Part shown: positions 19,018 through 35,597 of the stretch, in pieces
Position numbering within the stretch: position 1 is the first letter of the stretch
Layout: each line of letters starts with the position of its first letter
Assembly: GCA_045117135.1 (NCBI GenBank)
Contig: JBGUNA010000086.1
Location: 2,638-66,637, forward strand
Direction: 5' to 3'
Length of the DNA: 64,000 nucleotides
Source: Candidatus Limivicinus sp.
GTDB taxonomy: Bacteria; Bacillota; Clostridia; Oscillospirales; Oscillospiraceae
The notes under the pieces: model-generated
The model's database searches: none
What the model saw: only the letters and a program-made list of their open reading frames with translations
What the model was told of the DNA's origin: nothing
Made by a program: the position numbers and the translations under genes

Positions 19018-19030
19018 TTTCCTAAAAATC

Positions 19031-19594: not shown

Positions 19595-19786
19595 GATGAC
19601 TCGATCCCTGCCTTCCGGATTAGTTTGGGGTTGACGGTTTGGGAAAACGGCGGATGAAAGCTTATCATAAAACTTAGAGCAGCGCAAGCAAAATTGAACG
19701 CCTGGTGCATCAAAAAGGATTGAAGAAGACGGGAATTTCTGTTATATTTCTGTCTGCAAAAGAGACAGAGAGGGGATGGGATATCG

Positions 19787-21079
19787 GTGAGTTTAAACTG
19801 GTTTGGTTATCCAATGCCGGGCTTTCGAATCGCGAACCTGATCATACAGTCGACTTATCTTGTTTTCCATTTCTTGTTTATCCTCTCCCTGTATCGAAGA
19901 CGACAGCCTACCCCGGTGTGGAACTGGTTTTTCTATCTATCTGTTTCTTTGTGGATCTGGGTGTCCGGCCGGTTCATGGAAACGATTGTTTATCTTTTCT
20001 TTCCAGATAACAATGATGCTTATGTGTTTGCAGCAAATTATCAGTACATAGGAAATACGATTGCAGCAGTGGAATATGTGATCTGGGTGCTCTACCTATC
20101 GGGACATGATCGGGTCGCTTCAAACGGATGGTTTCGCATCTTCCTGTTTTCGTGCCCCGTTATAACCTGTACACTTGTTTTTACCAATGATCTGCACCAT
20201 CTGTTTTATACAAAGCTGGTTATGGGAGAACGGGTCGGACATGGGATCCTGTTCGCCCCCTGTCTCATCTGGATGTATCTGATTCTGCTTTCTGGATATG
20301 CCGTATCTGTGAAATATGTTTTAAGATCCGGGAAGGATTGTGGCAAGCAGATTTTTATGTTTTCGCTGTTTCCCATGCTTCCCGCTGTCGGAGTCCTTAT
20401 CCGCTCCATCAGTGGTATTGACAGACTTGACTATACACCAATGTATATGGCGGTTGCCATTATTTGCCTTTATCAGATAATTTTTCGCTATCACTATGTG
20501 AATATTGTCCCGGCATCCATTCTGGAAGCTTTGGAACAGACTGCTCATCCCATTGGTATTTATAACCCTCGGAAAAATGAGCTGTTATACAGCAATCAAG
20601 CTGCTAAGGGCTATTCTGATGCAGCAGAGGGTTTCCTTCCCCTCTTGTCAGATTCGAGAACACGCCTGGAAGGCGATTTTGACGAGAAACATCTGCTGAT
20701 TGATATTACACCTCTTCCAAATGAGGAGCCGATTCTCGTGACAGTCACGGATGTCAGCGATGTTATGCGGCAACAGGCAGATCTTAATGCAAAGATTAAG
20801 AATCTGGAAGAACTTCAGCTGGAACTTGAGGAGGCGAACCAGAATATCGATGCATATCTCTGTTCCCTGCAAAGTATGAGAGGAATCGGGAAAAAACAGG
20901 ATCTGATTCGTGACACCTATGCAATGATCACACAGACTTTTAAAATGGTGAGGAAAAATCTTGTTGAGGCAGGTCAGAGACCTGAAGTGGGAGAAACGGT
21001 ACTTCAGGAAAATCTCCGGCTGACCAGGGAGTGTATTACAGCTATTCGAAAAGCGGTGGCCGAGCTGAAGGTGGATTGA
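19787..21079 (+). CDS. 7TM sensor module (HisKA_7TM-type N-terminal domain + small PAS-like region + coiled coil), lacking an ATPase domain
   Basis: 430 aa with a GTG start after AGAGAGGGGA. It has about 7 hydrophobic helices in the first ~240 aa, then ..LLIDITPLPNEEPILVTVTDVSDVMRQQADLNAKIKNLEELQLELEEANQNI.. I recognise no H-box and no N/G1/G2 boxes. Confidence 0.7.
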   Translation: MSLNWFGYPMPGFRIANLIIQSTYLVFHFLFILSLYRRRQPTPVWNWFFYLSVSLWIWVSGRFMETIVYLFFPDNNDAYVFAANYQYIGNTIAAVEYVIWVLYLSGHDRVASNGWFRIFLFSCPVITCTLVFTNDLHHLFYTKLVMGERVGHGILFAPCLIWMYLILLSGYAVSVKYVLRSGKDCGKQIFMFSLFPMLPAVGVLIRSISGIDRLDYTPMYMAVAIICLYQIIFRYHYVNIVPASILEALEQTAHPIGIYNPRKNELLYSNQAAKGYSDAAEGFLPLLSDSRTRLEGDFDEKHLLIDITPLPNEEPILVTVTDVSDVMRQQADLNAKIKNLEELQLELEEANQNIDAYLCSLQSMRGIGKKQDLIRDTYAMITQTFKMVRKNLVEAGQRPEVGETVLQENLRLTRECITAIRKAVAELKVD

Positions 21080-21081
21080 AT

Positions 21082-22035
21082 ATGGATGTTATCGAAAAAG
21101 CATTCCGATTACTTCCGGACACTATAATCATCACGGATGTGTACTGGTATGTCCTGGATTATAACCGGAAAGATCCCTTCTGCCCAATGCGAAAAGGGGA
21201 CAATCTGAATAGATATATGGCAGACTGCAAAAGCATGCCTAACGGCAGATATCCATATGACGGCAAAGTATACCAGCGCAGTACAACACCGGTATTTGAG
21301 CGCGGCATTCATGTGGGATACGTTGTCTATCTCGCTGATGTCACTGAAAAAGAGAGGCTGATTGAAAAAAGCCGCATAAAAAGTGCGGAATTGGAAGAAC
21401 TGACCGGGAAACAGGCACAGGCAAACGCGGAACTGGAAGAGTACGTTCGCCAGGCAGAGGCATTAGGTGAATATGAAGAGCAGGTTCGTATTGCACGCAG
21501 CATTCACGACGACGCCGGACACGCAATTACGATGTTGAATACCATTTCACAGATGTGCTTACAACTGAAAGATTCCGACCCTGCCCAATACCATCGCCTG
21601 ATTGAAGAAGGTATTGCACTATGCGACAGTAACGAAATAAAGAAGCGGTATAGCTCTTTTTCTGATATATCGATTAAAGAAATGCTGGGGAAGTTGAGAG
21701 ACGAAAGCGCTTTCCCCATAGAACTGAGAATTCAGGGAGAAGAACCACAATTTGCCAAACCACTCCGTAAGATTATCGAAAAAATCTGTCAGGAAGCCTA
21801 CCATAATACACTTTCACATTCCATGGCAGACAGAATTACCATCGAAGTAAACATGGAACCGACACTGTTATCACTCCGGATTTCCGATAACGGAAGCTTC
21901 CGGGGAACACTTGAAAAAGGGTTCGGGTTATGCACAATGGAGGAGTCAGTCAGAGCATCTGGAGGAACCATCTCTTTTGAAGCAGAAGAGGGAAAAGGAT
22001 TTGGAATTGTTACAGAATGGAGGGCAGAAGAGTGA
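21082..22035 (+). CDS. Cytoplasmic sensor histidine kinase (PAS-like + HisKA_3 + HATPase_c)
   Basis: The start ATG at 21082 lies 2 nt after the stop of the 7TM ORF; the track ORF begins at 21031. H-box: RIARSIHDDAGHAIT. ATPase boxes: QEAYHNTLSHS, ISDNGSF, GFGLCTMEE. No TM segment is present. Confidence 0.8.
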   Translation: MDVIEKAFRLLPDTIIITDVYWYVLDYNRKDPFCPMRKGDNLNRYMADCKSMPNGRYPYDGKVYQRSTTPVFERGIHVGYVVYLADVTEKERLIEKSRIKSAELEELTGKQAQANAELEEYVRQAEALGEYEEQVRIARSIHDDAGHAITMLNTISQMCLQLKDSDPAQYHRLIEEGIALCDSNEIKKRYSSFSDISIKEMLGKLRDESAFPIELRIQGEEPQFAKPLRKIIEKICQEAYHNTLSHSMADRITIEVNMEPTLLSLRISDNGSFRGTLEKGFGLCTMEESVRASGGTISFEAEEGKGFGIVTEWRAEE

Positions 22036-22661
22036 ACAAAAAGATCAGGATTGTCCTTGCAGATGATCATCCCATCATGACGGAAGGATTGAAACTGACG
22101 ATCAGTTCATGGGAGGAATTTGAGGTGATTGGGATCGCATCAGACGGAGAAAAAGCAGTTGAGATGAGTGTTAAGCTGCTGCCAGATCTTGTGATTACCG
22201 ATATGCAGATGCCAAAACTGTCCGGAGCTGAAATCATTAAACGTCTCAAAGAAAAAATCCCGGGTATCCGTATTTTGGCATTTACCACTTTCAGCGACGC
22301 AGAGACGGTTTCGAGAGCGGTGAAAGCAGGCTGTGACGGCTTCCTTCTAAAGGTGATCGAGCCGGAAAAACTGAGAGCATCGCTTCTTTCCATTGCGAGC
22401 GGACTGAACGTCTATGATGAAGACGTCATAAAGCAGATGAAAAAGGGCTTGAAAGAGGAGCCTGGAGTGGTTTTCAGTAAGAGAGAACAGGAGATTATTC
22501 GTTATATCTGTCAGGGAATGACGAATGCAGAGATCGCAGATAAACTGCATCTTCGCCCGGGGACCGTAAAAAATATTGTGTCACTTTTGCTCAGCAAATG
22601 CGGCTGTATCAGCCGTGCCCAACTTGTTAAATATGCCTCAGAGAAAGGGCTTATGGAATAG
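22032..22661 (+). CDS. NarL/LuxR-family response regulator (REC + LuxR HTH)
   Basis: IRIVLADDHPIM...DLVITDMQMPKLSGAE...TTFSD.. followed by the HTH SKREQEIIRYICQGMTNAEIADKLHLRPGTVKNIVSLLLSKCG. The likely GTG start at 22032 overlaps the kinase stop (GTGA). The track start is 22017. Confidence 0.88.
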   Translation: MNKKIRIVLADDHPIMTEGLKLTISSWEEFEVIGIASDGEKAVEMSVKLLPDLVITDMQMPKLSGAEIIKRLKEKIPGIRILAFTTFSDAETVSRAVKAGCDGFLLKVIEPEKLRASLLSIASGLNVYDEDVIKQMKKGLKEEPGVVFSKREQEIIRYICQGMTNAEIADKLHLRPGTVKNIVSLLLSKCGCISRAQLVKYASEKGLME

Positions 22662-22691
22662 ATTTCCTGTGTTTCAAAAAAATAGTGTAAC

Positions 22692-22726
22692 AGTGCCGAA
22701 TGGAATGACCATCGGCACTTTTTTTG
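22692..22726 (+). terminator. Intrinsic terminator after the two-component system operon
   Basis: 8-bp stem AGTGCCGA (22692-22699) / TCGGCACT (22712-22719) followed by TTTTTTT. Confidence 0.75.
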
Positions 22727-22797
22727 CGAAATGAATCGAAATATAATTACAAATACAATGTATAAAAATCCGTGAAATTCTAAAGGGGGCTGTGCAA

Positions 22798-24513
22798 ATG
22801 AAAAAACTTTTAACGTTTCTCTTGATGCTCACATTGATGGCCAGTTTTGTTGTTCCTGGCCTGGCGGATTACGGGGATGGTCTTGACGATTATCTGTATT
22901 CTACCGGGAGCAGCGGTGTCACTCTGACAAAGTATTTCGGAGAGGGTGAGAGCACACTGGTACTCCCAACCGAAGTGGAGGGGTTACCTGTAACAAGGAT
23001 CGGTGAAAAATGCTTCGAAGATCATGATGAAATTGAAGCAGTCGTACTTCCGGAGACCCTGAAGGTAATCGGCTACCGCGCCTTCTACGGGTGCTCAAAA
23101 CTTTCTGATATGAACCTTCCGGATTCTCTGGAGCAGACAGGCGGATGGGCGCTTGCCCACACAGGATTTACCAGTTTCGTGTTCCCGGAAGGGTTTGACA
23201 CTCTTGGATATGGAACTTTTTACGGCAGCAGAAATCTTGAGACGGTTGTTCTGCCGGAAGGAGTGGAGTCCATCGGTGAAAACACTTTCAGAGGCTGCTC
23301 GAAACTACAGAGCGTAACAATCCCTTCGGATGAGATCAAAATCGATATCAAGGGATTTGAGGAAAACAGCAAGGTGACCATAGTCGGTGTTCCCGGCAGC
23401 TATGCTGAAAAATATGCGAAAGCAATCGGCATCGGATTTGAAGAATACCACAAGACAGAAGAAGTTGAAAAAACCGAAGAAATGTTGCTTTCTGGATGGA
23501 TCTGCCCGAACTGCAGAAAAGAAAACAACGGTAATTTCTGCCCGTTCTGTGGGACGAAAAAACCGCCTGAAGAAATCATTTGCACTGAATGTGGGGAAGT
23601 ATATCCTCCTGATACAGACTATGCCTTCTGCCCGAACTGCGGAAATCCGCTGTTACAGCCGTCAGATTCTCCTAAATCGGCTTCTTCATTATCCAAAACA
23701 TCAGAACCAAAAACTGTATCTGATCCTACACCGGAGCTGACTCAGAAACCTACTCCGGAAACATCTGATGATGGGGCAATTCCGGAAGAACTGGTTGGTG
23801 ACTGGCAGGGTGTTGGGAAACCGAAAAATGGAGGGCCTTCTATTGATCTGACCATCCATGTGGAAGAAGACGGAACCGGCAAATATATGTTTGATCAGGC
23901 AGGATACCATGAGAGCTATCCGTTCACGCTTTCCCGGGACGGTAAACGTTTCTCAGTAGATGTTCCGGCTACCAGCCAGCTGGGCAGTGTTGACGGCACA
24001 TGGGAAGTAGAAGATGATGTGCTGAAGCTGGACATTACCTCAACGTTTACCAGCGGCGGAAGCTATTCCTACAATGCGGAATGCAAAAGGATCGTTGCAG
24101 AAGACAAAGGGAGTTCTGCAGCTGAAGGAAACCAGGCAGGTTTTGTGGGAGAATATTCCTGGCTTTCTTATCATTTGACGGTGAATTCTAAAGAAATCGT
24201 GCCAGGGACTGAATTGGATAAATCTCCTTTCAGTACGATTAAAGACAAAATGTTTGCTAAGATCCGTCTGATGGGAAAAGATGAAGAAATCCTCACAACA
24301 GATCTGCAGGACGACAATAAGATGGGTCAGTTTGTGCTTACAGATAAAGAAGGAAAAGAACTTCCACTCTATTCTGTGAGTATGTGGGGGATTACCTTCG
24401 ATGCCGACCTGGGATTCAGCACGAAGGAAACACAGGAAGGCTTTGATCTCATTTTTCTTGTCGGCGACAACGATCGAATCGAAGATTTGACACTTACTGT
24501 AAAAGATCAGTAA
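22798..24513 (+). CDS. Secreted modular protein P1: signal peptide + BspA-type LRR (LRR_5-like) + two Cys4 zinc-ribbon knuckles + C-terminal beta-rich domains
   Basis: ATG at 22798 after AAAGGGGG. Signal peptide: MKKLLTFLLMLTLMASFVVPGLA. LRR_5-like repeats: LPETLKVIGYRAFYGCSKL, LPEGVESIGENTFRGCSKLQSV. Ribbon A (23497-23565): WICPNCRKENNGNFCPFCGTKKP. Ribbon B (23581-23652): CTECGEVYPPDTDYAFCPNCGNPL. Confidence 0.75.
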   Translation: MKKLLTFLLMLTLMASFVVPGLADYGDGLDDYLYSTGSSGVTLTKYFGEGESTLVLPTEVEGLPVTRIGEKCFEDHDEIEAVVLPETLKVIGYRAFYGCSKLSDMNLPDSLEQTGGWALAHTGFTSFVFPEGFDTLGYGTFYGSRNLETVVLPEGVESIGENTFRGCSKLQSVTIPSDEIKIDIKGFEENSKVTIVGVPGSYAEKYAKAIGIGFEEYHKTEEVEKTEEMLLSGWICPNCRKENNGNFCPFCGTKKPPEEIICTECGEVYPPDTDYAFCPNCGNPLLQPSDSPKSASSLSKTSEPKTVSDPTPELTQKPTPETSDDGAIPEELVGDWQGVGKPKNGGPSIDLTIHVEEDGTGKYMFDQAGYHESYPFTLSRDGKRFSVDVPATSQLGSVDGTWEVEDDVLKLDITSTFTSGGSYSYNAECKRIVAEDKGSSAAEGNQAGFVGEYSWLSYHLTVNSKEIVPGTELDKSPFSTIKDKMFAKIRLMGKDEEILTTDLQDDNKMGQFVLTDKEGKELPLYSVSMWGITFDADLGFSTKETQEGFDLIFLVGDNDRIEDLTLTVKDQ

Positions 24514-24541
24514 ATGAGTATTTAAGGTAGGAGAACGAGCA

Positions 24542-25675
24542 ATGAAAAAACTGATTTCGATTCTATTGTGTACATTGCTACTTGTCGGGATCCTGGGAAG
24601 CTTTGCTATGGCAGAGAATGCGTATTGCTCCAACTGCGGAGAAGAATATCCCCCCGGAGAGGGTTATGCTTTTTGCCCAAACTGCGGTGAGCCTCTGTCA
24701 GGGGATAACGAGTACGACTTTATGATTCCAATGGTTACGAAAGCAACTGATGAAGAAAAATATGATGAGTTGCCGGAGGACGGAAGCTTTGACCTTACGG
24801 ACTATGTGCTGAACCAACTTGGAAATTCTCTTTATCGTGAAACTTATGAAGCACTTGCCGGAGGAGAAACTGTTTCCATGGGCGGCTGGGGCACAACGGC
24901 CAAGGGCCTGCAGCAGACGCTGATAGACTTTGGGCAAAAGCTTTCGGCCGACGGACAGGCGGGGGGAAAAACCTTTGAGGCTCTCCATGCAGTCCAGGAC
25001 GCTTTCGGCATGGAGCGCACAGACAAAGTTGACAGCGAAGCCTACTCACATCTGCTTCTGCGTCTGCTGGTGCTCAAAGAAATGGACGAGGATGAATACG
25101 GAGTGACGGACAAACTCTGCGATCTGCCCGGCGAACTGATCGACTATGATGAATGCAGCTATATGATGGCATGTGCAGATTATCTGAAAGGGAACTACTA
25201 CAAAGCAAAGGAACGGTTTGAATCCTGTTATTGGGGAGACGCGGAAGAGCGTGCGGAAAAATGCGCGCAGCCCTGGCCGTCCACCGGGCAGCTCTGGAAA
25301 GACAGCAGCCTCGGAGCAGGAACCCAGCTGACCATCACAGTGAATGGGGAGCCGGACGTCGGGATGCATGTCAAAATCTATACAGAGAGCGGAAAGCTTG
25401 CCGCAATGCTGTTTGTCGGAGGATCGGGAAGCGCTTCCACATGGCTGCCGGGAGGCACCTATACGATCAAGGACGGCACGGGAAGAGACTGGTACGGCCA
25501 GGAAGATTCCTTCGGGTATTACGGAAATTATGAAGTGATGACCTTTGACGATTACGGCACAACAGAGGTGGAACTGAAAGCGGGTTATTCTTACACGATT
25601 ACAATCAACGTGCAGAACGCTTCTCCCGATGCCTCCAATGTGGGAAGCATGTATGATTCCTATGATGACTTCTGA
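24542..25675 (+). CDS. Secreted modular protein P2: signal peptide + zinc ribbon B + peptidoglycan-binding-like helical domain + beta domain
   Basis: AGGAGAA RBS. N-terminus: MKKLISILLCTLLLVGILGSFAMA ENA YCSNCGEEYPPGEGYAFCPNCGEPL (ribbon at 24623-24697). The segment GLQQTLIDFGQKLSADGQAGGKTFEAL resembles PG_binding_1. Confidence 0.75.
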   Translation: MKKLISILLCTLLLVGILGSFAMAENAYCSNCGEEYPPGEGYAFCPNCGEPLSGDNEYDFMIPMVTKATDEEKYDELPEDGSFDLTDYVLNQLGNSLYRETYEALAGGETVSMGGWGTTAKGLQQTLIDFGQKLSADGQAGGKTFEALHAVQDAFGMERTDKVDSEAYSHLLLRLLVLKEMDEDEYGVTDKLCDLPGELIDYDECSYMMACADYLKGNYYKAKERFESCYWGDAEERAEKCAQPWPSTGQLWKDSSLGAGTQLTITVNGEPDVGMHVKIYTESGKLAAMLFVGGSGSASTWLPGGTYTIKDGTGRDWYGQEDSFGYYGNYEVMTFDDYGTTEVELKAGYSYTITINVQNASPDASNVGSMYDSYDDF

Positions 25676-25723
25676 GATATAAAACCGGAAATCAAAAAAC
25701 AAAAACAGAAAGGACAAATCAAG

Positions 25724-26443
25724 ATGAAAAAACTGATTGCACTGCTTCTCTGCACAGTTCTGCTGGCAGGGATGACGGTATGCTTCGCAGATTCTGATAC
25801 ATGGACCTGCGAGAGCTGCGGAAGAGAAAGCAGCGGGAAATTCTGCCCGTACTGCGGAGCAGCAAAACCGGAAGAGGTGATTTTCCCGGAGGCACCGGCG
25901 GGGACTTTCTCCATCCGAAACGGGATCCGCTGGGGTATGAGCGGGTATGAAGTGGAGACAAGGGAAGCAAACCCGAAAAGTGATGAGGAGAGATATTATT
26001 CCACCGAGGATGGGTATGTGATTACAAATCTCTACTATGACTCGTACGAGAAAAAAGCGAGTATATTCCCAGCCAGCATCAACTATCAGTTCTCCAGGGA
26101 TAAGCTGTTCATGGTTACATACCACGCAGAGTATGAAGGATCCTATCTGGAAAACCTTGAGATGAACACCTATCTGAAGAATGCAGTGACGACAAAATAT
26201 GGTAGCGGACATGAGGCCACATTTGGAGAGAGAGAAAAAATCAGGAATGTAATGAATGTGATAGATAATTATTTCTATGATGAGGATATCAAACAAATCA
26301 CAGTATGGGATCTCCCGGAGGACACCACAGCGGCTTTCATCGAGGGGTATTATCTGGAAGACTGCAGGCTTGTGTACTTCCACTATAGCACCATGCTGAA
26401 CGGCCTCCCGGAAGACGGTGTTTATAACACCAACGGACTGTGA
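25724..26443 (+). CDS. Secreted protein P3: signal peptide + zinc ribbon A + unknown domain
   Basis: N-terminus: MKKLIALLLCTVLLAGMTVCFA DSDT WTCESCGRESSGKFCPYCGAAKP (ribbon at 25802-25870). RBS is GAAAGGA. Confidence 0.7.
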   Translation: MKKLIALLLCTVLLAGMTVCFADSDTWTCESCGRESSGKFCPYCGAAKPEEVIFPEAPAGTFSIRNGIRWGMSGYEVETREANPKSDEERYYSTEDGYVITNLYYDSYEKKASIFPASINYQFSRDKLFMVTYHAEYEGSYLENLEMNTYLKNAVTTKYGSGHEATFGEREKIRNVMNVIDNYFYDEDIKQITVWDLPEDTTAAFIEGYYLEDCRLVYFHYSTMLNGLPEDGVYNTNGL

Positions 26444-26523
26444 TTCTCTTTGTAAAAAACTTGAACACAAACATTTTGTCACTTATAATAGGAAATACAA
26501 AATTTGAAAGGATGATCCCGATT

Positions 26524-27393
26524 ATGAAAAAACTGTTCGCATTACTCCTCGTATTCTGCATGCTGCTGTCGGTAACAGCGATTGCTGAAGCAATCGGCCC
26601 TGAGGAAGCTATTGACGCTGCCTTTGACGAGTGCCCCATTGATATTATGCTTGCAGAGGGAATCAAAGTGTCCCAGACAGGCGGAAACTGGAAAATCTCC
26701 TTCGGGTCAAAATACGGAGATTTCAGTTATGTGGTTGATGGATCGACCGGAGAAATCCTGGAAAAGAATGAGCCGGAAATCGATGAAAAGCCGGCCGATC
26801 CGGCATCAGATGCCCTTGACGCCTGCTTTGACGCCCTGGATGGATATAACGGGGGAGCAGAAAACATCAAGCTCAGCATGAAAACTATTGACGGCGATTT
26901 GAATGTCGCTGTGACATTTGACTGGAATGGCAAAGCATATGATATGCTTTACAATACTGTTACCGGAGAAGTAATTGATAATAGCGAGGAGACAGAAGAT
27001 TCTTATTATCTAATCGGCTCCAGTGAAAACACCTTTGCTGGGCTGCATAAGAGAATGTGCATCAATCTTGACCTGAAGACCAACCCAATTCCGGAACCGG
27101 ATGAGGATATGGGAACATTTGGCTCGGAAACAGTGCATGCGAAAGTGCTGAAGGATGATTCTGAATCTTACGAGTATATTGGATATTGCCGTGGATGGGA
27201 CGGAAAAGACCGTTATATATGCTGGGCCTGGACAGGATTACACGAGGATGGGTCTACCATCGGCATGCTTGTCTTCTATACGCCGGATGGGAAGTATCTC
27301 GGAAATATCCAGAGAGATCTTTCTGCAGGTACATCAACATCTTCTCACAATAGTCCATACTATGTCCCGGGCGAACCAATCAACAAGAAATAA
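26524..27393 (+). CDS. Secreted protein P4: signal peptide + PepSY-like region + shared C-terminal module X (no zinc ribbon)
   Basis: ATG at 26524 after GAAAGGA (the track ORF starts at 26440). Signal peptide: MKKLFALLLVFCMLLSVTAIAEA. The C-terminal 130 aa are a close paralog of the P5 C-terminus. Confidence 0.7.
   Translation: MKKLFALLLVFCMLLSVTAIAEAIGPEEAIDAAFDECPIDIMLAEGIKVSQTGGNWKISFGSKYGDFSYVVDGSTGEILEKNEPEIDEKPADPASDALDACFDALDGYNGGAENIKLSMKTIDGDLNVAVTFDWNGKAYDMLYNTVTGEVIDNSEETEDSYYLIGSSENTFAGLHKRMCINLDLKTNPIPEPDEDMGTFGSETVHAKVLKDDSESYEYIGYCRGWDGKDRYICWAWTGLHEDGSTIGMLVFYTPDGKYLGNIQRDLSAGTSTSSHNSPYYVPGEPINKK
27001..27390 (+). repeat. Copy 1 of the duplicated ~390-nt coding module X (C-terminus of P4)
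   Basis: SYYLIGSSENTFAGLHKRMCINLDLKTNPIPEPDE...ICWAWTGLHEDGSTIG..DGKYLGNIQRDLSAGTSTSSHNSPYYVPGEPINKK aligns without gaps, apart from one codon, to 28439-28831. Similarity is visible at the nucleotide level. Confidence 0.8.
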
Positions 27394-27418
27394 AATACTA
27401 AAACACTTCTAACACACC

Positions 27419-27447
27419 CACTCCCCTGCACATAAAACAGGGGAGTG
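27419..27447 (+). terminator. Terminator-like hairpin after P4 (weak U-tract)
   Basis: 10-bp stem CACTCCCCTG (27419-27428) / CAGGGGAGTG (27438-27447). The downstream sequence ACCTTATAT is only weakly T-rich. Confidence 0.4.
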
Positions 27448-27520
27448 ACCTTATATCCGCGATGATTCTATGGAACTGAAAGAAAAAGCTATACTGAAAA
27501 GAGAAGGAAAGGACAGAGCT

Positions 27521-28834
27521 ATGAAGAAGCTGATTGCAATCCTTTTATGCACCGTAATGCTGGCAGGTATGACAGCAAGCATCGCCATGGGGGAGAGCAG
27601 GTTTTGCCCCTATTGCGGGCAGGAATATCCTGTTGAGCAGGGTTATGCTTTCTGCCCGAATTGCGGGAAAGCGTTGCCTCAGGCTGAATCCAAACAAAGC
27701 GCAGAGACAAAAGAGCAGGTGAACAGCGAAGCTGTGGCTGTTGGGGATGTTGTGAGATTCGGCAGATACGAACAGGATAATAACCGATCCAACGGGGCCG
27801 AAGGAATCGAATGGACCGTTCTGAATATTCAGGGCAACGAGGCACTGCTGCTCAGCAAATACGGGCTGGACTGCAAAATATACTATAAATTCAAGACTTC
27901 TGTGACATGGGAGACATCTGACCTGAGGGTATGGCTGAACGGAGAATTCTTCGATTCGGCGTTTAATGCGGACGAACAGGGGAGAATCCTGACAACAAAC
28001 GTCACAGCGGACAAAAATCCCGAACACAATACCGATCCCGGCAATGACACAAAGGATAAAGTTTTCCTGCTGTCAGGCGTGGAAGTGAGCCGGTATCTGA
28101 CCGAAGAAACAGCGAAGTGCAAGGCAACGGCCTACGCATTAGCGGAAGGTGCATCTTCCGGGAAGAACGGCTATTCCTGGTGGTTCCTGCGCACACCCGG
28201 TTCAGAACAGAAAATGGTTATGATTGTAAAGACAGACGGCACGATGAATACAGGCGGCGGAGTAACCAATGGGACGGGAGCACTCGGAGTTGACCGCCCG
28301 GCAATATGGATTGATCTCAGCAACTGGGAATCCTATGAACAGCCTCCTGCACCGGCAATCCCAGCGGAAAACGTTCAGACAACTCCAATACCCGAGATAG
28401 AGACCCTTCCCGCTCCCAATGCTGAAGAAGTGACTGATTCCCCGTATGTGATCGGATCCAGTGAAAACACGTTCGCGGGTCTGCACCAGAGAATGTGCGT
28501 CAACCTTGACTTGAAGGCCAATCCGATTCCGAAACCGGATGAGAAGCTGTCAACCTACGGAACCGGTGATTATGAATACGTTAAAGTACTGAGAGATGAT
28601 AGTAAGAGCTATGAGTTCATCGGCTATGTACGCGGGGTGACAGGCGAAGACCGCTATATCATCTGGAGCTGGACAGGTCTGCATGAGGACGGATCCACCA
28701 TCAATCAGACAGTCTATTATATGCTCGATGGAAAGTACCTCGGCAATATTCAGCGTGACCGCACGGCGGGAACATCCACATCCTCCAGCCGCTGCCCGTA
28801 TTACGTCCCCGGTGAACCGATTAACAAGAAATAG
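27521..28834 (+). CDS. Secreted modular protein P5: signal peptide + zinc ribbon B + DUF6273-like domain + linker + module X
   Basis: ATG at 27521 (the track ORF starts at 27470). N-terminus: MKKLIAILLCTVMLAGMTASIAMG ESR FCPYCGQEYPVEQGYAFCPNCGKAL (ribbon at 27602-27676). DUF6273-like boxes: IEWTVLNIQGNEALLLSKY, VWLNGEFF, VFLLSGVEV, WWFLRTPG. Confidence 0.75.
   Translation: MKKLIAILLCTVMLAGMTASIAMGESRFCPYCGQEYPVEQGYAFCPNCGKALPQAESKQSAETKEQVNSEAVAVGDVVRFGRYEQDNNRSNGAEGIEWTVLNIQGNEALLLSKYGLDCKIYYKFKTSVTWETSDLRVWLNGEFFDSAFNADEQGRILTTNVTADKNPEHNTDPGNDTKDKVFLLSGVEVSRYLTEETAKCKATAYALAEGASSGKNGYSWWFLRTPGSEQKMVMIVKTDGTMNTGGGVTNGTGALGVDRPAIWIDLSNWESYEQPPAPAIPAENVQTTPIPEIETLPAPNAEEVTDSPYVIGSSENTFAGLHQRMCVNLDLKANPIPKPDEKLSTYGTGDYEYVKVLRDDSKSYEFIGYVRGVTGEDRYIIWSWTGLHEDGSTINQTVYYMLDGKYLGNIQRDRTAGTSTSSSRCPYYVPGEPINKK
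28439..28831 (+). repeat. Copy 2 of the duplicated coding module X (C-terminus of P5)
   Basis: SPYVIGSSENTFAGLHQRMCVNLDLKANPIPKPDE...IIWSWTGLHEDGSTIN..DGKYLGNIQRDRTAGTSTSSSRCPYYVPGEPINKK. It is the paralog of 27001-27390. Confidence 0.8.
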
Positions 28835-28949
28835 GAAATGAGCTAATAGTATTAATCTCATCTAGATCAAAGAAAATATGGAGATTTCCAATTTACATCA
28901 TAAAACTGAAAAAAGCTCTCAAAAGAGAAGAAAAAGAAGGGAAAATGCA

Positions 28950-30788
28950 ATGAAAAAACTAATAGCATTCCTTTTATATATAATGTTGTTGGCTGGGATG
29001 ACAATTAGCTTTGCTGATGGTGAGAGTTGGATTTGCACTGAATGCGGGAAGGAAAGCGACGGAAACTTCTGCCCATATTGTGGAGCTAAGAAACCGGAAA
29101 CAGAAATAACATGTACTTCCTGCGGGGAAGTATATGCCCTGGATCTGGGTTATGCTTTCTGCCCGAACTGCGGAGCTACCTTGAAGGAACACGAGGAGTC
29201 TGCTCCCGAGGGGGAAAAATATTCCTTTTCAGTTGGTTACTGCATCTGGAACCTGAAAAAAGACCGCTTGTTGGAATATGTGGATGAGGATGACATGACG
29301 GCAGAAACACTTCCGGATGGGGATGTTTACGGGCCGGTGCTGACAGTCACCAATCTCTCTGGGGAAACAGTCAGGCCGGAAATCACAGCCACAATTAATG
29401 GAGAAGAGATTACCTGGGATCGAACAGAGTTCGGCCCATCAGAGGAATGGTCATTTGTTATAACAGAGAATTCTCCGGCGGGGGAATATGATTACACGTT
29501 TTTCGTGGATGGGAAAGAAGCGGCTTCGGGGCATTATACTGTGAAGAGCGAAGGCCCGCTCGGTGAAGATGCACCGACGATTGAATCCATTATTATGATG
29601 GGCAGTAAAGTTATCGTTACGTGGAAGGAAGTTCCCGGAGCGGAAAATTATACGGTTTATCGGTCTGAGGATAATGAAATTTACAGCAAGATCGGCCTTA
29701 CCATCCCACGGACATCATATACCTGCAAAACCTGCGAAGAAGGGAAAACCTATTTCTTCAAAGTGAGCGCAAACGGTTACGATGGTAAAGAAGGGCCCGT
29801 GAGCAAGGCAAAAAGCATTGACATTCCGGTTGATGTGTTCTCCCAGGGGAAAACAGAGGAGCCAAAACCGACTGTAAAACCTACACCGGAGCCGACTGAG
29901 GCTCCTACACCAGAACCGACGCCCGAACCTACCCCTGAACCAACTCAAATGCCTGAAGATGTCCTGAAAGCCGGAGAGAACGGAACTATTCAACTGGAAA
30001 TGGGATCAGGAACGGTTTTCACTCTTACCCCGGTTGAAGCAAGTGCATTCTGGAAACAGAGCGATAAGGTCAGCGTACGGACACGAATCGGAGATACAAA
30101 CCTGAACAACGGAGCCACTGCGACATCCGGAAGCAGCCTTATGCTGAGCACTATGAAGAATACAAAACAGTATTCAATGCCCATGGCAGCTTTTTCCTGG
30201 AAGAGTGACGTTTCTGGCGATGAAGCTGCGGGAGCAGTCGGAAAAATCGGAAGATCAACTATTCTGTTGCTTGATGGGAAATCTTATACACCACGGGTAG
30301 CCTGGAGTACGGATGAGATGGGTTGCTTCATTTTCGATTGTCCGGAGCTGCCGGAACAAGTTCCGGTTTTCCAGATTCAGGATCAAAAACTTGTTATTTC
30401 ATATGAGTTACCTGAATTGCTGGCGAAGGAAGAACCTCCTGTGAATAATGAACCGATCACGCTTCATGTCAAGACGGCCAAATATACCTTTGATGCGACA
30501 GTTGTCGATGTTACAATTGAAGACGGTCAGCTGCATGTGAGCCTGGAAATCAAGAATAACGATAAATGGGCGTTTGAGTATAATCCTCCTTTGTGCTATG
30601 CATTGATAAGCGGGAAAAAGTACGAGGTGGATACATATAATGCAACGCAGCACATTGACACAAAAGGAATCACGCTTAGTTCGCTGACCTATAATATCCC
30701 TTATAAATCAGATACGCTTCCGGACCAGGTTCTGATGGATGTATCCGGAAATGGTGACTATCAGGTGATTTGGAATAACGCAAAGTGA
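28950..30788 (+). CDS. Secreted modular protein P6: signal peptide + zinc ribbons A and B + Ig/Fn3-like domains + Pro/Thr linker + C-terminal domain
   Basis: ATG at 28950 (the track ORF starts at 28878). Signal peptide: MKKLIAFLLYIMLLAGMTISFA. Ribbon A (29028-29096): DGES WICTECGKESDGNFCPYCGAKKP. Ribbon B (29112-29183): CTSCGEVYALDLGYAFCPNCGATL. Fn3-like segment: VTWKEVPGAENYTVYRSEDN. Linker: KPTVKPTPEPTEAPTPEPTPEPTPEPTQ. Confidence 0.75.
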   Translation: MKKLIAFLLYIMLLAGMTISFADGESWICTECGKESDGNFCPYCGAKKPETEITCTSCGEVYALDLGYAFCPNCGATLKEHEESAPEGEKYSFSVGYCIWNLKKDRLLEYVDEDDMTAETLPDGDVYGPVLTVTNLSGETVRPEITATINGEEITWDRTEFGPSEEWSFVITENSPAGEYDYTFFVDGKEAASGHYTVKSEGPLGEDAPTIESIIMMGSKVIVTWKEVPGAENYTVYRSEDNEIYSKIGLTIPRTSYTCKTCEEGKTYFFKVSANGYDGKEGPVSKAKSIDIPVDVFSQGKTEEPKPTVKPTPEPTEAPTPEPTPEPTPEPTQMPEDVLKAGENGTIQLEMGSGTVFTLTPVEASAFWKQSDKVSVRTRIGDTNLNNGATATSGSSLMLSTMKNTKQYSMPMAAFSWKSDVSGDEAAGAVGKIGRSTILLLDGKSYTPRVAWSTDEMGCFIFDCPELPEQVPVFQIQDQKLVISYELPELLAKEEPPVNNEPITLHVKTAKYTFDATVVDVTIEDGQLHVSLEIKNNDKWAFEYNPPLCYALISGKKYEVDTYNATQHIDTKGITLSSLTYNIPYKSDTLPDQVLMDVSGNGDYQVIWNNAK

Positions 30789-30870
30789 CTTGAGATGTCA
30801 ATAAAGCTGATAAATACAGCATTCATAGATTATGGTAAACTAAATTTAGTTAATAAAATTATAATCAACC

Positions 30871-30906
30871 AAAAAAGAACTGCGCCACAGGTTTCCTGTG
30901 GCGCAG
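30871..30906 (-). terminator. Intrinsic terminator of the LysM gene
   Basis: Perfect 12-bp stem CTGCGCCACAGG (30880-30891) / CCTGTGGCGCAG (30895-30906). On the minus strand it is followed by TTCTTTTTT. It lies 16 nt downstream of the stop at 30922. Confidence 0.75.
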
Positions 30907-30921
30907 ACGATTGATTGTGAA

Positions 30922-32220
30922 TCAGCTTTTTGCAAAAGAGCAGTCGTTGGCGATTTCTTCTTGGTTGTCGTGCCAGATTGCAATTTTGTTTGCGATGTAA
31001 AGATAACCGGAACCATTTTCGTAATAGGTGGTACGCGTTTCTGTTCCATCGGCATTGAAATGGATAGAAGTCTTGGTGCAGTCTTCGTATGTGAGAATTC
31101 CGGCCTGGGTGAAAGTGCCGCTGAAGTTCCATTCATCCGTTTCTTCGGCACCGTTCGGCCAATGCACAGTGACTTTTTTCAATTCATCGGTTCCTTTTAT
31201 CTCGATGACAGCTTTTCCGGCAGTTCTCTCAACATAGATACCTGCATAAGTGTCAGGCTCTTCAGCAACCTGCTGCTGCGGAGCGGAAGTAGCAACCGGG
31301 GCTGCTACCTTTACGGGAGCAGAGACTTTGCTGAGGAGGTAGATGCGCCCGCCTTTTGGAATCGAATCGAGCTTCAGATCAGGGTTGATACTTGCCAGCA
31401 GATTCTCAACGGTTGCAAAATTGATCCCGTATGCTTTGCAAAGCTTACCTGCCGTATCTCCGGTAGTGATATCGTGGGAATAGACCGCGTAGACAGCATT
31501 ATCAGCTTTGGCAGAAGGGAAGAGGTAAGCTTTTCCGGTGGAAAGAGACTTGAGATTTACGACATCATTGAGAGATTTTACAAGTGCATCAATTTCAAAG
31601 GAGTATGGGGCTCCCAGGGCTTCACAGACTGTCTCAACGGTTTCGCCGGGCTCTAATTTATGCTCGACTATGAAGTATTCCAGCCTATCGCCTTCAATTG
31701 GGGGCTCAACAGTTGTGCTAATCTGCAGGAGAGGGGCATCAAGAGGGATATAAATGATCTGACGGGCTTCTATGCTGTTAAGCTCATCATCACTTTCCCA
31801 TCCGTTTAATCTTTTAATGGTTTCTTTGTAGTAATTGTAGTTCAGATGCTGTGCTTTGCAGATTTTAAACATTGTGTCGCCCTTTTTAACTTTATACTCT
31901 ATAGCATTCGCAGGGCAATTCTGGTCATGAAGGGAAACAATGGCTAGTGCATCTTCATCAGATTTGGGAAGATAAATTGTCTGCCCGATTGCCAGGGTTT
32001 CAAGAGAAATCTCTCTCGAAAAACCGTTTAGAATAAGAATTGCCGTTTTGTCAGCACTGTAATCCAAACCGAGTTTTTTACATAGGGAAACAACGGAATC
32101 GCCTTTTTTTGCAGTAACCTGCTGGGCGTATGCGGAATAGTCCGTTTCGGCAAAAGCCTGAACAGAAATGCAAGTCAAAGCGATGCAGATCAATAAAACA
32201 ATGCTTATTACTCTTCTCAT
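30922..32220 (-). CDS. Secreted protein with four LysM repeats + C-terminal beta domain
   Basis: Signal peptide: MRRVISIVLLICIALTCISVQAFA. There are four LysM-like units (VTAKKGDSVVSLCKKLG.., YKVKKGDTMFKICKAQH.., HKLEPGETVETVCEALG.., HDITTGDTAGKLCKAYG..). Confidence 0.85.
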   Translation of the reverse strand: MRRVISIVLLICIALTCISVQAFAETDYSAYAQQVTAKKGDSVVSLCKKLGLDYSADKTAILILNGFSREISLETLAIGQTIYLPKSDEDALAIVSLHDQNCPANAIEYKVKKGDTMFKICKAQHLNYNYYKETIKRLNGWESDDELNSIEARQIIYIPLDAPLLQISTTVEPPIEGDRLEYFIVEHKLEPGETVETVCEALGAPYSFEIDALVKSLNDVVNLKSLSTGKAYLFPSAKADNAVYAVYSHDITTGDTAGKLCKAYGINFATVENLLASINPDLKLDSIPKGGRIYLLSKVSAPVKVAAPVATSAPQQQVAEEPDTYAGIYVERTAGKAVIEIKGTDELKKVTVHWPNGAEETDEWNFSGTFTQAGILTYEDCTKTSIHFNADGTETRTTYYENGSGYLYIANKIAIWHDNQEEIANDCSFAKS

Positions 32221-32258
32221 GATGGCTTCTCCTTTGGTTACAAAAGTTTACATAAAAT

Positions 32259-32287
32259 ATTATACTATAATCCTCGTTATTTGTCAA
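32259..32287 (-). promoter_or_regulatory. Consensus sigma-A promoter for the LysM gene
   Basis: The minus strand reads TTGACA (32287-32282), a 17-nt spacer, then TATAAT (32264-32259). It lies ~40 nt upstream of the ATG at 32220. Confidence 0.6.
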
Positions 32288-32330
32288 CTAAATCCGGCTG
32301 AAACAATTCAGGAAGCAAACACTTTTTTCG

Positions 32331-32359
32331 TTGACGCTGGTTAGGTCTTGTGATACCAT
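32331..32359 (+). promoter_or_regulatory. Candidate extended -10 promoter driving the structured RNA / downstream operon
   Basis: TTGACG (32331-32336), a 17-nt spacer ending in TGa, then TACCAT (32354-32359). The predicted TSS is near 32366. Confidence 0.5.
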
Positions 32360-32431
32360 AAAGTTGTAGCTAGTGACGCTTATTTCTTGTATGGTCGCCT
32401 TACGGCGATTTGATCAGTGTCACAATTCACA

Positions 32432-32570
32432 GGGCGGATAGCTAATCAGGCTTATTTCTGATTTACCAAACCGGAGATGGAGGTTCGATTCCTCCCGGCG
32501 CACAGCGCTGTAGTTCAATGGCAGAATGCCGGTCTTCAAAGTCTGATGATATCATCCGCCTTTTTGTTTT
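32432..32570 (+). ncRNA. Structured ncRNA: a circularly permuted tRNA-like module closed by a long stem and U-tract (Y RNA / YrlA-like design). The 5' end may extend to ~32366.
   Basis: Elements in order: ACCGG 32470-74; AGAT; T arm GGAGG-TTCGATT-CCTCC 32479-95; CGGCGC 32496-501; ACA loop; GCGCTG 32505-10; TA; D arm GTTC-AATGGCA-GAAT 32513-27; G; CCGGT 32529-33. The outer helix GGCGGAT 32433-39 / ATCCGCC 32554-60 is followed by TTTTTGTTTT. No ORF fits this interval. Confidence 0.55.
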
Positions 32571-32598
32571 ATAAGACGGGAAACAGAGAGGATTTAGA

Positions 32599-34674: not shown

Positions 34675-34740
34675 AAGTTACCATTTTTTATGTTTTTGTA
34701 ATAGACCTGTTGCTGGTTTCATAAAGAACAGGAGACTGGG

Positions 34741-35445: not shown

Positions 35446-35558
35446 TTAGAGTGCAAAAATAAGAGAGAGAATTTTCGAATATTTGCTACAGGCTTTTGCA
35501 GGAAATATATCAGCGCTGTCAGGTGGAAAAGAACTATTGAAGTTCCAAAATGATGATG

Positions 35559-35593
35559 GCGCTCTCCCATCCCTGATCGGAGGGCGCTGTTTT
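35559..35593 (+). terminator. Terminator-like hairpin closing the RNA/TerD/phosphoesterase unit (it sits just upstream of the lacZ start)
   Basis: 9-bp stem GCGCTCTCC (35559-35567) / GGAGGGCGC (35579-35587, one G:U) followed by TGTTTT. Confidence 0.55.
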
Positions 35594-35597
35594 ACGC

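Follow-up and report, generated by a model that had tools for sequence, protein, structure and literature searches.

Cys4 zinc ribbons of the DZR (PF12773) and Zn_Ribbon_1 (PF13240) type are known from single-pass membrane proteins of Firmicutes, including S. aureus TcaA, L. lactis Llmg_0526/0524, and B. subtilis YdjG, in which a cytoplasmic ribbon is followed by a transmembrane (TM) helix (PMC3924330, PMC11237479), and from the C-termini of band-7/SPFH proteins, such as YdjL. The N-terminal CX2CX10CX2C motifs of Llmg_0524/0526, which are related to the knuckles studied herein, bind zinc experimentally (PMC4628341). That such ribbons are normally N-terminal, cytoplasmic, and ahead of a TM helix, as an earlier note on this DNA had it, agrees with the ribbon-TM homologues that we recovered and with the literature (PMC3924330, PMC4628341). 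The knuckles of our array are members of this known family, with which they share their sequence, the CPxCG knuckles and GYAFCPNCG signature, a 16-20 aa Cys4 unit that is often paired, and passengers of the DUF6273 type. In the array proteins, however, the hydrophobic segment comes first and resembles a cleavable Sec signal, which would therefore put the ribbon on the outer side, and some other secreted proteins carry the module at their extreme C-terminus. We found no description of such an arrangement, which recurs in many uncultured relatives of the gut Oscillospiraceae host.

The locus comprises six open reading frames (ORFs), P1-P6, all on the + strand at 22798-30788 of the window (the whole 64-kb stretch of DNA that was analyzed). 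With moderate confidence in the explanation as a whole, we read it as a chromosomal array in an uncultured Oscillospiraceae bacterium of the ruminant gut, whose six products are paralogous, modular cell-surface proteins exported by Sec. The paralogues match one another in BLASTP (E 1e-7 to 1e-22), every one starts with MKKL behind a purine-rich, SD-like stretch, and all six show one hydrophobic stretch and an AxA-type site; the start of P4, formerly only implied, is the ATG at 26524. P1 (22798-24513) consists of a signal peptide (22798-22866), a BspA-type LRR_5 domain (22993-23376), an acidic linker, a type A ribbon (WICPNCRKENNGNFCPFCGTKKP, 23497-23565) and a type B ribbon (CTECGEVYPPDTDYAFCPNCGNPL, 23581-23652; DZR match at aa 236-282, 26.2 bits), a PT-rich linker, and C-terminal domains. 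P2 (24542-25675; signal peptide 24542-24613) has a type B ribbon (YCSNCGEEYPPGEGYAFCPNCGEPL, 24623-24697; Zn_Ribbon_1, 6.6e-5) that begins 4 residues past the predicted AMA↓E cleavage site, followed by a passenger with weak likeness to PG_binding, while P3 (25724-26443; signal peptide 25724-25789) joins a type A ribbon (WTCESCGRESSGKFCPYCGAAKP, 25802-25870) to a domain of ~185 aa. P4 (26524-27393; signal peptide 26524-26592) has a weak PepSY-like region, no ribbon, and a C-terminal domain (26980-27390) that is 71% identical over 138 aa to that of P5 (28418-28831). P5 itself (27521-28834; signal peptide 27521-27592) carries a type B ribbon (FCPYCGQEYPVEQGYAFCPNCGKAL, 27602-27676; Zn_Ribbon_1, 7.9e-5), a charged linker, and DUF6273 (27836-28315). 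Finally, P6 (28950-30788; signal peptide 28950-29015) bears a double ribbon (29028-29183; type A 29028-29096, type B 29112-29183), a beta-rich region, an Fn3-like domain (29601-29798; PDB 3mpc match, 6e-4), a PT linker (29859-29957), and a C-terminal region. Among the passenger assignments made earlier, LRR_5 (3e-28) and DUF6273 (1.7e-26) are significant in Pfam, whereas PG_binding (~1e-3), PepSY (~6e-3), and Fn3 (~3e-4) miss their family thresholds.

Each of the seven knuckle spans translates to the peptide first reported for it, five of the six genes carry one or two 23-aa knuckles of type A and/or type B, and type A lies ahead of type B in both P1 and P6, where the two occur together. Across the whole window, the pattern CxxC-x(6-22)-CxxC was found only in these five genes and in one spurious antisense ORF. 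The cassettes were also found independently as DNA repeat families with 68-78% nucleotide identity (D4 for the type A ribbons of P1 and P3, D1 for the type B ribbon of P1), and a knuckle-only profile search returned 4523 cluster representatives at E<=1e-3. The knuckle family in the array is not a product of chance. The order of signal peptide and then ribbon recurs in relatives, but the knuckle types are not confined to the outside: A-like and B-like sequences are also found in cytoplasmic contexts, such as SPFH/band-7 proteins and classical ribbon-TM proteins. Since cytoplasmic proteins carry these types as well, the sequence implies no outside-specific ligand.

Signal peptides were called by hydropathy and the -3/-1 rule alone. 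Each of the six N-termini runs from a positive n-region through a single h-region to an AxA site, with small residues at -3/-1 and E/D next in line, and a Kyte-Doolittle scan (19-residue window) found this one N-terminal hydrophobic segment per protein and no later TM segment. Net charges of -16 to -48 make the mature parts strongly acidic. The layout MKK-h-AxA↓E/D-x(1-5)-W-x-C is present in 38 separate clusters, in which the spacing from ribbon to cleavage site is tightly constrained, and the homologues P0094, P0108, and P0112 have a lipobox. The passengers are extracytoplasmic elsewhere, and the ribbons would end up outside with them, because no TM helix lies in between. This topology logic supports the initial proposal that the knuckles of the array lie outside the cell membrane.

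The architecture is common to ~40 of the best 150 clusters (50% identity). All 42 signal-peptide-class homologues match DZR, and their partners, as counted among the top 25 Pfam families, are extracytoplasmic types: DUF6273 (12), LRR_5 (3), SecDF_P1_head, FMN_bind, OmpA, and DUF5050. SLH, LysM, cell-wall-binding, and LPXTG are absent from the families listed for these 42 proteins. DUF6273 has a C-type-lectin-like fold and is found in phage receptor-binding proteins and a secreted IgA protease (PMC10743442, PMC12402451). Among 120 DUF6273 homologues, the N-terminus shows only a signal peptide, lipobox, or TM in 57, a signal peptide and then a ribbon in 10, and a ribbon and then a TM in 9, which places the domain outside in every class. 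Other relatives pair the module with lipoboxes, a solute-binding protein, a TlpA-like thioredoxin, PG_binding_1, or LRR_5. The idea of a shuffled “signal peptide plus knuckle” cassette holds with regard to shuffling, as seen from DUF6273 behind three N-terminal architectures and from a fusion of P1 and P2 at the type B knuckle in the related metagenome-assembled genome (MAG) L010. The mobile unit, however, is the knuckle module and not strictly its combination with a signal peptide, as in other proteins the module is internal or at the extreme C-terminus, besides the mature N-terminus. Five ruminant-gut MAGs, the one with the fusion among them, share the array and its two-component system in synteny. 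P1 orthologues are 64-90% identical in L006, L007, L008, and L010; P2, the most conserved member, retains 75-92% identity in related MAGs; P0005, P0007, and P0008, homologues of P3, share its architecture; and an identical P6 protein occurs on 7 metagenome contigs.

Upstream of P1, on the + strand, lies a split histidine kinase, with a HisKA_7TM membrane sensor (19787-21079; Pfam 2e-25; a GTG-initiated ORF whose exact start is uncertain) as its first half and a HisKA_3/HATPase_c kinase (21031-22035; 8e-6 and 8e-5) as its second. For both halves, synteny with the array holds in L007, L008, and L010. They are followed by a LuxR/GerE-type response regulator (22017-22661, +; Response_reg 1.5e-24, GerE 1e-13), which in three MAGs keeps its place immediately before the P1 orthologue and, from this conserved adjacency, is likely the regulator of the array. 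Together, the split kinase and the LuxR-type regulator probably control it. Downstream, a GC-rich hairpin (30880-30906; 12-bp stem with 9 GC pairs, T-run) lies between the stop of P6 and that of a convergent gene and likely ends the array transcript or transcripts; no comparable + strand terminator was found within the array. The convergent gene (30922-32220, - strand) encodes a secreted LysM-repeat protein (2.6e-13). It adjoins P6 in L001-L004 and is counted here as a neighbor only.

Anchoring, targeting, and metal binding are functions that the knuckles may serve, and the most likely seems to be a zinc-stabilized terminal handle that retains or docks the proteins at the surface. Each ribbon would fold around one Zn2+ once exported by Sec, the free thiolates needed being feasible in a strict anaerobe, and the ribbons would be small and rigid, like beads set between flexible linkers of acidic or PT type. 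The A+B pair could then act as a shared terminal handle that binds a common envelope component or partner protein and holds otherwise anchorless ligand-binding domains (BspA-type LRR, C-type-lectin-like DUF6273, PG-binding-like, and Fn3) at the cell surface. We take the module to be old, kept by purifying selection, and recombined onto a range of passengers. A retention role is suggested by the position of the module, at either the N-terminus of the mature protein or the extreme C-terminus. In monoderm bacteria, solute-binding proteins and TlpA-like thioredoxins normally need anchoring, and in two independent arrays the module is the only candidate tether of such a protein, i.e., a solute-binding protein that lacks a lipobox (L021 8099-9889) and a TlpA-like thioredoxin (L023 5435-6154). 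Against a handle, lipobox homologues keep their ribbons despite having their own anchor, P4 lacks a ribbon, and in one homologue (L022 306-965) a knuckle has decayed. Further, an uncleaved N-terminal segment could itself tether the N-terminal class, making the ribbon needless as an anchor. On balance, a surface array whose exported zinc ribbons serve as a shared retention handle is, as a whole reading, somewhat likelier to be right than wrong.

Among the alternatives, one deserving weight, though improbable, is that the knuckles are outside but form disulfide-stapled hairpins (two S-S each), as oxidation-hardened structural caps rather than zinc sites. The extracytoplasmic space usually favors disulfides, and the L023 thioredoxin-fold protein, which is secreted, has a WCPPC motif, and carries two knuckles within a related array, could be an oxidoreductase working on them. 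TlpA/ResA-type proteins are, however, reductants, and the hosts are strict gut anaerobes. In 12 of 279 A-like knuckles, a single ligand Cys is replaced by Asp, including in the signal-peptide-class proteins P0035, P0295, and P0324, and each such replacement would leave an unpaired Cys under a disulfide model. In addition, the CPxCG knuckle geometry speaks for a metal site, as does the close likeness to genuine zinc ribbons of an AF2 model of the P6 A+B module (mean pLDDT 88), which in Foldseek matches PolD DP2 and, with type A, Nup153 ZnF3, and the cytoplasmic relatives Llmg_0524/0526 bind Zn (PMC4628341). We infer that the knuckles would be metal rather than disulfide sites.

Slightly less probable again is that the ribbons do nothing of their own outside: in an ancestral ribbon-TM-passenger gene, a signal peptide would have taken the place of the TM anchor, and the ribbons would persist neutrally, as a spacer only. 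The three kinds of N-terminus found with DUF6273 (ribbon-TM, signal-peptide-ribbon, and signal-peptide-only), the many DUF6273 paralogues that, like P4, manage without ribbons, and the decayed knuckle are in line with this origin. A mere spacer, however, would not be expected to retain 8 Cys and a Trp invariantly, along with several invariant or nearly invariant Gly/Phe/Pro positions, over 34 aligned modules that represent clusters at only ~50% identity. The paralogous cassettes likewise keep their amino acids while ~1/5 to 3/4 (mostly 40-60%) of conserved codons differ, and the module occurs on at least eight unrelated passenger types, at both termini, and at a tight spacing to the cleavage site.

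A more doubtful proposal makes the array an extracellular Zn2+ buffer or capture device, built from abundant surface proteins, under the control of the adjacent two-component system, given seven predicted zinc sites in one co-regulated array and the conserved sensor kinase and regulator upstream. Yet structural Cys4 ribbons bind zinc essentially irreversibly and are poor shuttles, and the bacterial zinc-uptake proteins known so far use His/Asp/Glu sites. The neighbors that were scanned showed no ZnuABC, ZinT, or Zur-like element, and the ribbons make up very little of these large multidomain proteins, the other domains of which resemble adhesins or lectins. Finally, that the knuckles are cytoplasmic, through an N-out/C-in anchor or wrong start codons, is very unlikely: in-frame ATGs do exist upstream of P5 (27470) and P6 (28878), but, in contrast to the MKK start, they are not conserved in orthologues and would merely lengthen the positively charged n-region, the positive charges precede the h-region and the acidic residues follow it, lipobox homologues exist, and LRR_5, DUF6273, SBP_bac_8, PG_binding_1, and TlpA-like domains would all be placed in the cytoplasm.

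Returning to the zinc-ribbon handle, its nearest solved match as a whole A+B module is the archaeal PolD large subunit DP2 (PDB 5ijl, 6hms, 6t8h; profile E 2e-6 over 52 positions; Foldseek probability 1.0, 31-33% identity over 55 residues), where the ribbon is internal to a cytoplasmic replicative polymerase and is unrelated in context and function. Type A alone has the W-x-C-x2-C...N...C-x2-C layout of the RanBP2/NZF finger (PF00641; Nup153 ZnF3, PDB 3gj4, 7mo3), on which its model superposes at an rmsd of 0.6 A over 27 residues (Foldseek), with 4 residues after the Asn as opposed to 6. PF00641 matches some homologues (7e-12; in L023, 26 bits against a 27-bit cutoff) but none of the window's own knuckles at E<=0.1 in Pfam, and the known RanBP2/NZF ligands (Ran, ubiquitin, and ssRNA) are intracellular and eukaryotic. 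By function only, the module can be likened to the retention modules of monoderms, i.e., type I dockerin, SLH, LysM, and CWB2. Dockerins use Ca2+ F-hands as opposed to Cys4-Zn ribbons and have no sequence or fold relation to the module. Nevertheless, dockerin and the A+B module are both short (~55-60 aa), duplicated, metal-binding (for the ribbons, as predicted), and terminal on many unrelated secreted proteins, and both belong to anaerobes of the Oscillospiraceae/Ruminococcaceae type, on carriers without any other anchor.

Six same-strand genes (P1-P6), with coordinates taken from their MKK start codons and with a purine-rich, RBS-like stretch 5' of each, fill positions 22798-30788 of the window, and five of them encode one or both of two classes of Cys4 knuckle. 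Specifically, type A (W-x-C-x2-C...F-C-P-[YF]-C-G-x-K-K-P) occurs in P1 (22798-24513), P3 (25724-26443), and P6 (28950-30788), and type B (C-x2-C-G-x-x-Y...[GD]-Y-A-F-C-P-N-C-G) occurs in P1, P2 (24542-25675), P5 (27521-28834), and P6; P4 (26524-27393) is knuckle-free. Every knuckle position in the earlier note translates to precisely the peptide it had read there, and the order that it claimed, A then B, is true of P1 and P6, the proteins with both. Its passenger assignments survived in part: LRR_5 in P1 (3e-28) and DUF6273 in P5 (2e-26) stand, and PG_binding in P2, PepSY in P4, and Fn3 in P6 fall below the Pfam thresholds. PDB sequence searches with P2, P3, P4, and P6 returned nothing informative on the passenger domains, and P4 and P5 have in common a C-terminal domain of 138 aa (71% identity). 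The clustering of knuckles in the array is not due to chance: in a pattern scan of the whole window, CxxC-x(6-22)-CxxC was confined to the five array genes and one spurious antisense ORF, and an independent repeat finder recovered the signal-peptide, type A, type B, and tandem A+B cassettes each as a DNA repeat family of 68-78% identity. The antisense ORF (25046-26482, minus strand, 478 aa), which lies opposite P2 and P3 and has one CxxC...CxxC match, is almost certainly a non-coding by-product of the purine-rich coding strand and was rejected as a gene. GC skew and AT skew are both positive over 22-30 kb.

The ribbons very probably sit outside the membrane, since, by topology logic, Sec-type export signals precede them and no TM segment lies between signal and passenger. 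Each of P1-P6 has one hydrophobic segment, at its N-terminus (Kyte-Doolittle), and after residue 40 there is none in any of the six (maximum KD19 mean, 0.97). The N-termini consist of two lysines, an h-region, small residues at -3/-1, and then an acidic residue, with rule-based cleavage sites (slash = cut) at GLA/D in P1, AMA/E in P2, CFA/D in P3, AIA/E or AEA/I in P4, AMG/E in P5, and SFA/D in P6; the mature parts have net charges of -16 to -48. Taking a Sec (SPase I) signal to comprise a positive n-region, an h-region of 12-18 residues, small residues at -3/-1, and no further TM segment, we judged all six proteins to have one. Lipoproteins (SPase II) were rejected because the Cys10 in the h-region is preceded by L-L, with no small residue, where a lipobox would read [LVI][ASTVI][GAS]C and close the h-region, and LPXTG/sortase or C-terminal TM anchoring was rejected because no hydrophobic segment lies past residue 40. 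The inverted order pointed out in the earlier note, with the hydrophobic segment before the ribbon, is found in all five ribbon-bearing proteins, which excludes the classical ribbon-TM type II arrangement (TcaA / Llmg_0526-like).

This layout extends well beyond the window. A profile built from the knuckles alone, with signal peptides excluded, gave 4523 matches at E<=1e-3 among 1.84 billion cluster representatives, and, on the question of ribbon position relative to signal or TM segments that the earlier note had raised, about 40 of the best 150 matches share the outside layout: a signal-like N-terminal segment is the sole hydrophobic stretch, and the ribbon lies directly after it or at the far C-terminus of proteins of up to 977 aa. 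The arrangement MKK-h-region-AxA/(E/D)-x(1-5)-W-x-C (slash = cut) is identical in 38 homologue clusters, and three of the ~40, the distant homologues P0094, P0108, and P0112, have lipoboxes. The strongest argument for an outside location comes from DUF6273, a C-type-lectin-like domain in phage receptor-binding proteins and a secreted IgA protease (PMC10743442, PMC12402451). Of 120 homologues retrieved with just this domain as query, 57 carry no more than a signal peptide, lipobox, or TM anchor, 9 show the classical ribbon-then-TM order (also found at several genome loci), and 10 have a signal peptide and then a ribbon without an intervening TM. The passenger is thus placed outside in every one of these N-terminal architecture classes, and the ribbon of the signal-peptide-then-ribbon class must then lie outside as well. 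Further partners of ribbons whose protein has a signal-like segment as its only hydrophobic stretch (the signal-peptide class, 42 homologues) are LRR_5, SecDF_P1_head, FMN_bind, OmpA, and DUF5050, and these partners are of extracytoplasmic types. The ribbon types themselves are not confined to the outside: classical ribbon-TM proteins carry the GYAFCPNCG signature and A-like units at their N-termini, and these sequences are likewise found behind multi-pass membrane domains and within SPFH/band-7 proteins; a profile search with the A+B module returned mostly short fragments, with cytoplasmic relatives annotated as SPFH/band-7. Long cytoplasmic proteins (P0102, P0140, P0011, P0013, and 'SPFH domain-containing' fragments) have up to ~20 tandem ribbons of the same type, so the ribbon family is much broader than its secreted subset. 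The N-termini of these many-ribbon proteins are SPFH/band-7-annotated, coiled-coil, or possibly tubulin/FtsZ-like (a glycine-rich motif, by eye only).

Two unrelated contigs carry further arrays with a recurring passenger set of DUF6273, LRR_5, and PG_binding_1. In the first (L021 853-11236; GCA_024712465.1, JAMQYI010865564.1), an independent array of 12 same-direction genes, 8 genes encode a signal peptide with an A-like knuckle immediately behind it, with passengers that include DUF6273 (five times), LRR_5, and an SBP_bac_8 solute-binding protein without a lipobox (8099-9889). The second (L023; ENA ERZ27280288, k141_1266846) has 8 signal-peptide-plus-knuckle genes, and within it lies a secreted TlpA/ResA-like thioredoxin-fold protein (5435-6154; WCPPC; AhpC-TSA, 6.5e-20) whose C-terminus carries a RanBP-like knuckle and a Zn_Ribbon_1 knuckle. 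Through this protein, the array may be tied to whether extracytoplasmic cysteines are oxidized or reduced.

The most likely role of the ribbon module, which we advance tentatively, is that of a shared retention or docking handle. First, P1-P6 and the 42 homologues have no LPXTG motif or C-terminal TM segment, and their listed Pfam families include none of the SLH, LysM, or cell-wall-binding kind. Second, the module is found preferentially at the mature N-terminus or at the very C-terminal end. Third, it is the only candidate tether on the lipobox-less solute-binding protein of L021 and the TlpA-like thioredoxin of L023, both of kinds that are normally membrane-anchored in monoderm bacteria. 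Finally, its ligand-binding passengers are many and unrelated. Against this role, the N-terminal class could be tethered by an uncleaved signal segment itself, homologues already anchored through a lipobox still keep their ribbons, and ribbons of these types also function inside the cytoplasm. We also considered that the ribbons are a neutral relic or spacer and that the array is a zinc buffering device; should the module be only a structural bead, the finding would still help to correct annotations and would illustrate clearly how domains are shuffled via a short conserved cassette. By topology logic, Sec-type signals carry DZR-family ribbons into the extracytoplasmic space of a monoderm strict anaerobe; each ribbon would then fold around Zn2+ after export, and the folded ribbons would act as small rigid beads between the flexible acidic or PT linkers that can be read directly in the sequences on either side of them.

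All seven window knuckles have the two CPxCG-like CxxC half-sites, ~8-16 residues apart, that mark the DZR / zinc-ribbon superfamily (PF12773, PF13240, PF13248). Scores for P1 (DZR, 26.2 vs 27.3 bits) and P2 (Zn_Ribbon_1, 23.0 vs 25) are just below the Pfam gathering cutoffs, and DZR is matched at E<=1e-3 by 42 of the 42 signal-peptide-class homologues (best, 5.8e-13). Eight Cys and a Trp are invariant in 34 of 34 aligned A+B modules, from clusters only ~50% identical, and Gly, Phe, and Pro positions are >90% conserved. The structure prediction that the earlier note had called for, an AlphaFold2 model of the A+B module from this alignment, gave a zinc-ribbon fold (mean pLDDT, 88) that Foldseek matched to the archaeal PolD DP2 double ribbon (probability 1.0, 31-33% identity over 55 residues); a comparison of the module profile with solved double ribbons also pointed to PolD DP2 (E 2e-6). 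The knuckles are thus predicted to belong to the zinc-ribbon fold. Foldseek also superposed the type A model, over 27 residues and with an rmsd of 0.6 A, on Nup153 ZnF3, a finger of the RanBP2 type; this likeness is structural only. Membership of the RanBP2 family (PF00641; W-x-C-x(2,4)-C-x3-N-x6-C-x2-C plus an HMM match) was rejected because type A reads W-x-C-x2-C-x3-[NS]-x4-C-x2-C, with 4 rather than 6 residues after the Asn, and no window protein matched PF00641 at E<=0.1.

The ribbons probably bind zinc, and two observations favor a metal site over the disulfide-stapled hairpins that could stand in its place. First, the knuckle geometry of the predicted model is that of genuine Zn ribbons (Foldseek). 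Second, exactly one ligand Cys is replaced by Asp in 12 of 279 A-like knuckles, mostly as F-C-P-x-D-G and including signal-peptide-class proteins (P0035, P0295, and P0324); Asp is an acceptable Zn ligand, whereas under the disulfide model such a single substitution would strand an unpaired Cys. The only biochemically studied relatives that we found in the literature, Llmg_0524 and Llmg_0526 of L. lactis, bind zinc via an N-terminal cytoplasmic CX2CX10CX2C motif (PMC4628341). The Asp variant (F-C-P-x-D-G or W-F-C-P-N-D-G) occurs in P0035, P0295, P0324, P0100, P0102, and P0140, which include both signal-peptide-bearing and apparently cytoplasmic proteins.

The exact P6 protein has matches only on metagenome contigs. 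A genome scan queried with six close module sequences found the closest genomes to be Oscillospiraceae/Ruminococcaceae MAGs from goat, yak, roe deer, and other ruminant guts, in which the array is syntenic with an upstream HisKA_7TM gene, HisKA_3 kinase gene, and LuxR-type regulator (56-93% protein identity). That the knuckles are cytoplasmic through an inverted topology or wrong start codons is very unlikely, as orthologues do not share the upstream ATGs of P5 and P6 and the cytoplasm would, on this reading, have to house lectin-like, LRR, solute-binding, and peptidoglycan-binding domains. Gene content differs between related MAGs, which bears on the question of array variability between strains posed in the earlier note: the goat MAG has one additional paralogue (signal peptide, type B, and DUF6273), and the RUG12393 and roe-deer MAGs have unrelated genes between the P4 and P5 orthologues. 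Further, the P1 and P2 orthologues are a single 613-aa gene in the roe-deer MAG (L010 8049-9890; Oscillospiraceae RGIG4485, omasum), laid out as signal peptide-LRR_5-linker-type B-P2 body, without the type A knuckle, the P1 C-terminal domains, or the P2 signal peptide. Its junction falls precisely at one type B knuckle, so the shared cassette has been a site of recombination. The P5 orthologue of the yak MAG (L006 8523-9827) has a C-terminal domain 85% identical to that of window P4, versus ~72% in other genomes (window counterparts, 26980-27390 in P4 and 28418-28831 in P5), a pattern that indicates P4-ward gene conversion between array members. Recent gene conversion was rejected as the source of the near-identical signal peptides, given cassettes of 68-78% DNA identity with many synonymous variants. 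Amino acids are kept between the window paralogue cassettes while about one-fifth to three-quarters of the conserved codons differ, depending on the pair (mostly 40-60%), so their likeness stems from old duplication under purifying selection. In a signal-peptide protein on another contig (L022 306-965), the A-like knuckle (W-Y-C-P-E-C-G-R-L-N-D-G-N-F-C-P-K-D-A-T-P-R-P) has decayed at its last CxxC half-site, so loss of the module in situ can occur.

The sensor kinase 5' of the array (19787-22035) is encoded in two pieces by overlapping genes, one for the HisKA_7TM membrane portion and one for HisKA_3/HATPase_c; a sequencing frameshift was rejected because the same split is kept in three related MAGs (L007, L008, and L010). 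The locus was also rejected as a DGR target (a DUF6273 / C-type-lectin variable protein): no TR/VR-like repeats were found in 19000-36000, where the only repeats are the paralogue cassettes (64-81% identity), and no reverse transcriptase was found among the neighbor genes scanned. An ORF at 32599-34674 (691 aa), flanked by a LysM gene and a gene for a calcineurin-like phosphoesterase, matches no Pfam family at E<=1e-3; metagenome contig L001 carries it too.

Cys4 zinc ribbons are known from textbooks as intracellular modules, and in bacterial membrane proteins they are routinely taken to indicate the cytoplasmic side. The literature on such ribbons treats them as intracellular (PMC3924330, PMC11237479), and open-access text yielded no paper in which a zinc ribbon or zinc finger is described as extracellular, secreted, periplasmic, or extracytoplasmic. 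The domain family is already known, and these proteins carry a generic zinc-ribbon annotation; what appears to be new is the systematic use of a familiar intracellular module on the outer face, in recurrent surface-protein arrays of uncultured gut Clostridia. Outside ribbons would occur in at least ~40 protein clusters at the 50% identity level, with arrays recurring in several uncultured gut lineages. If so, topology and annotation rules that equate a zinc ribbon with the inside would be unsafe for Clostridia, a candidate retention mechanism would be at hand for many surface proteins that lack an anchor in abundant but uncultured Oscillospiraceae of the rumen and gut, and anaerobes would offer a simple case of extracellular zinc-thiolate chemistry, possibly sensitive to oxygen or host zinc sequestration. 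Zn-dependent docking, if true, would make the surface display of the whole protein set sensitive to oxygen and zinc availability, since the docking module would depend on reduced thiolates and Zn. Dockerin itself (PF00404; a duplicated Ca-binding F-hand) was rejected, as dockerin and cohesin families are absent among the Pfam families listed for the window proteins and the 42 homologues, and it serves as an analogy only. By that analogy, the boldest of our proposals, and one less likely than not, is that the A+B double ribbon represents a previously unrecognized class of non-covalent surface retention or docking in monoderm anaerobes, a Zn-dependent functional counterpart of dockerin, SLH, and LysM through which domains of the lectin-like, LRR, peptidoglycan-binding, solute-binding, and thiol-reductase kinds would be attached to a shared receptor in the envelope.
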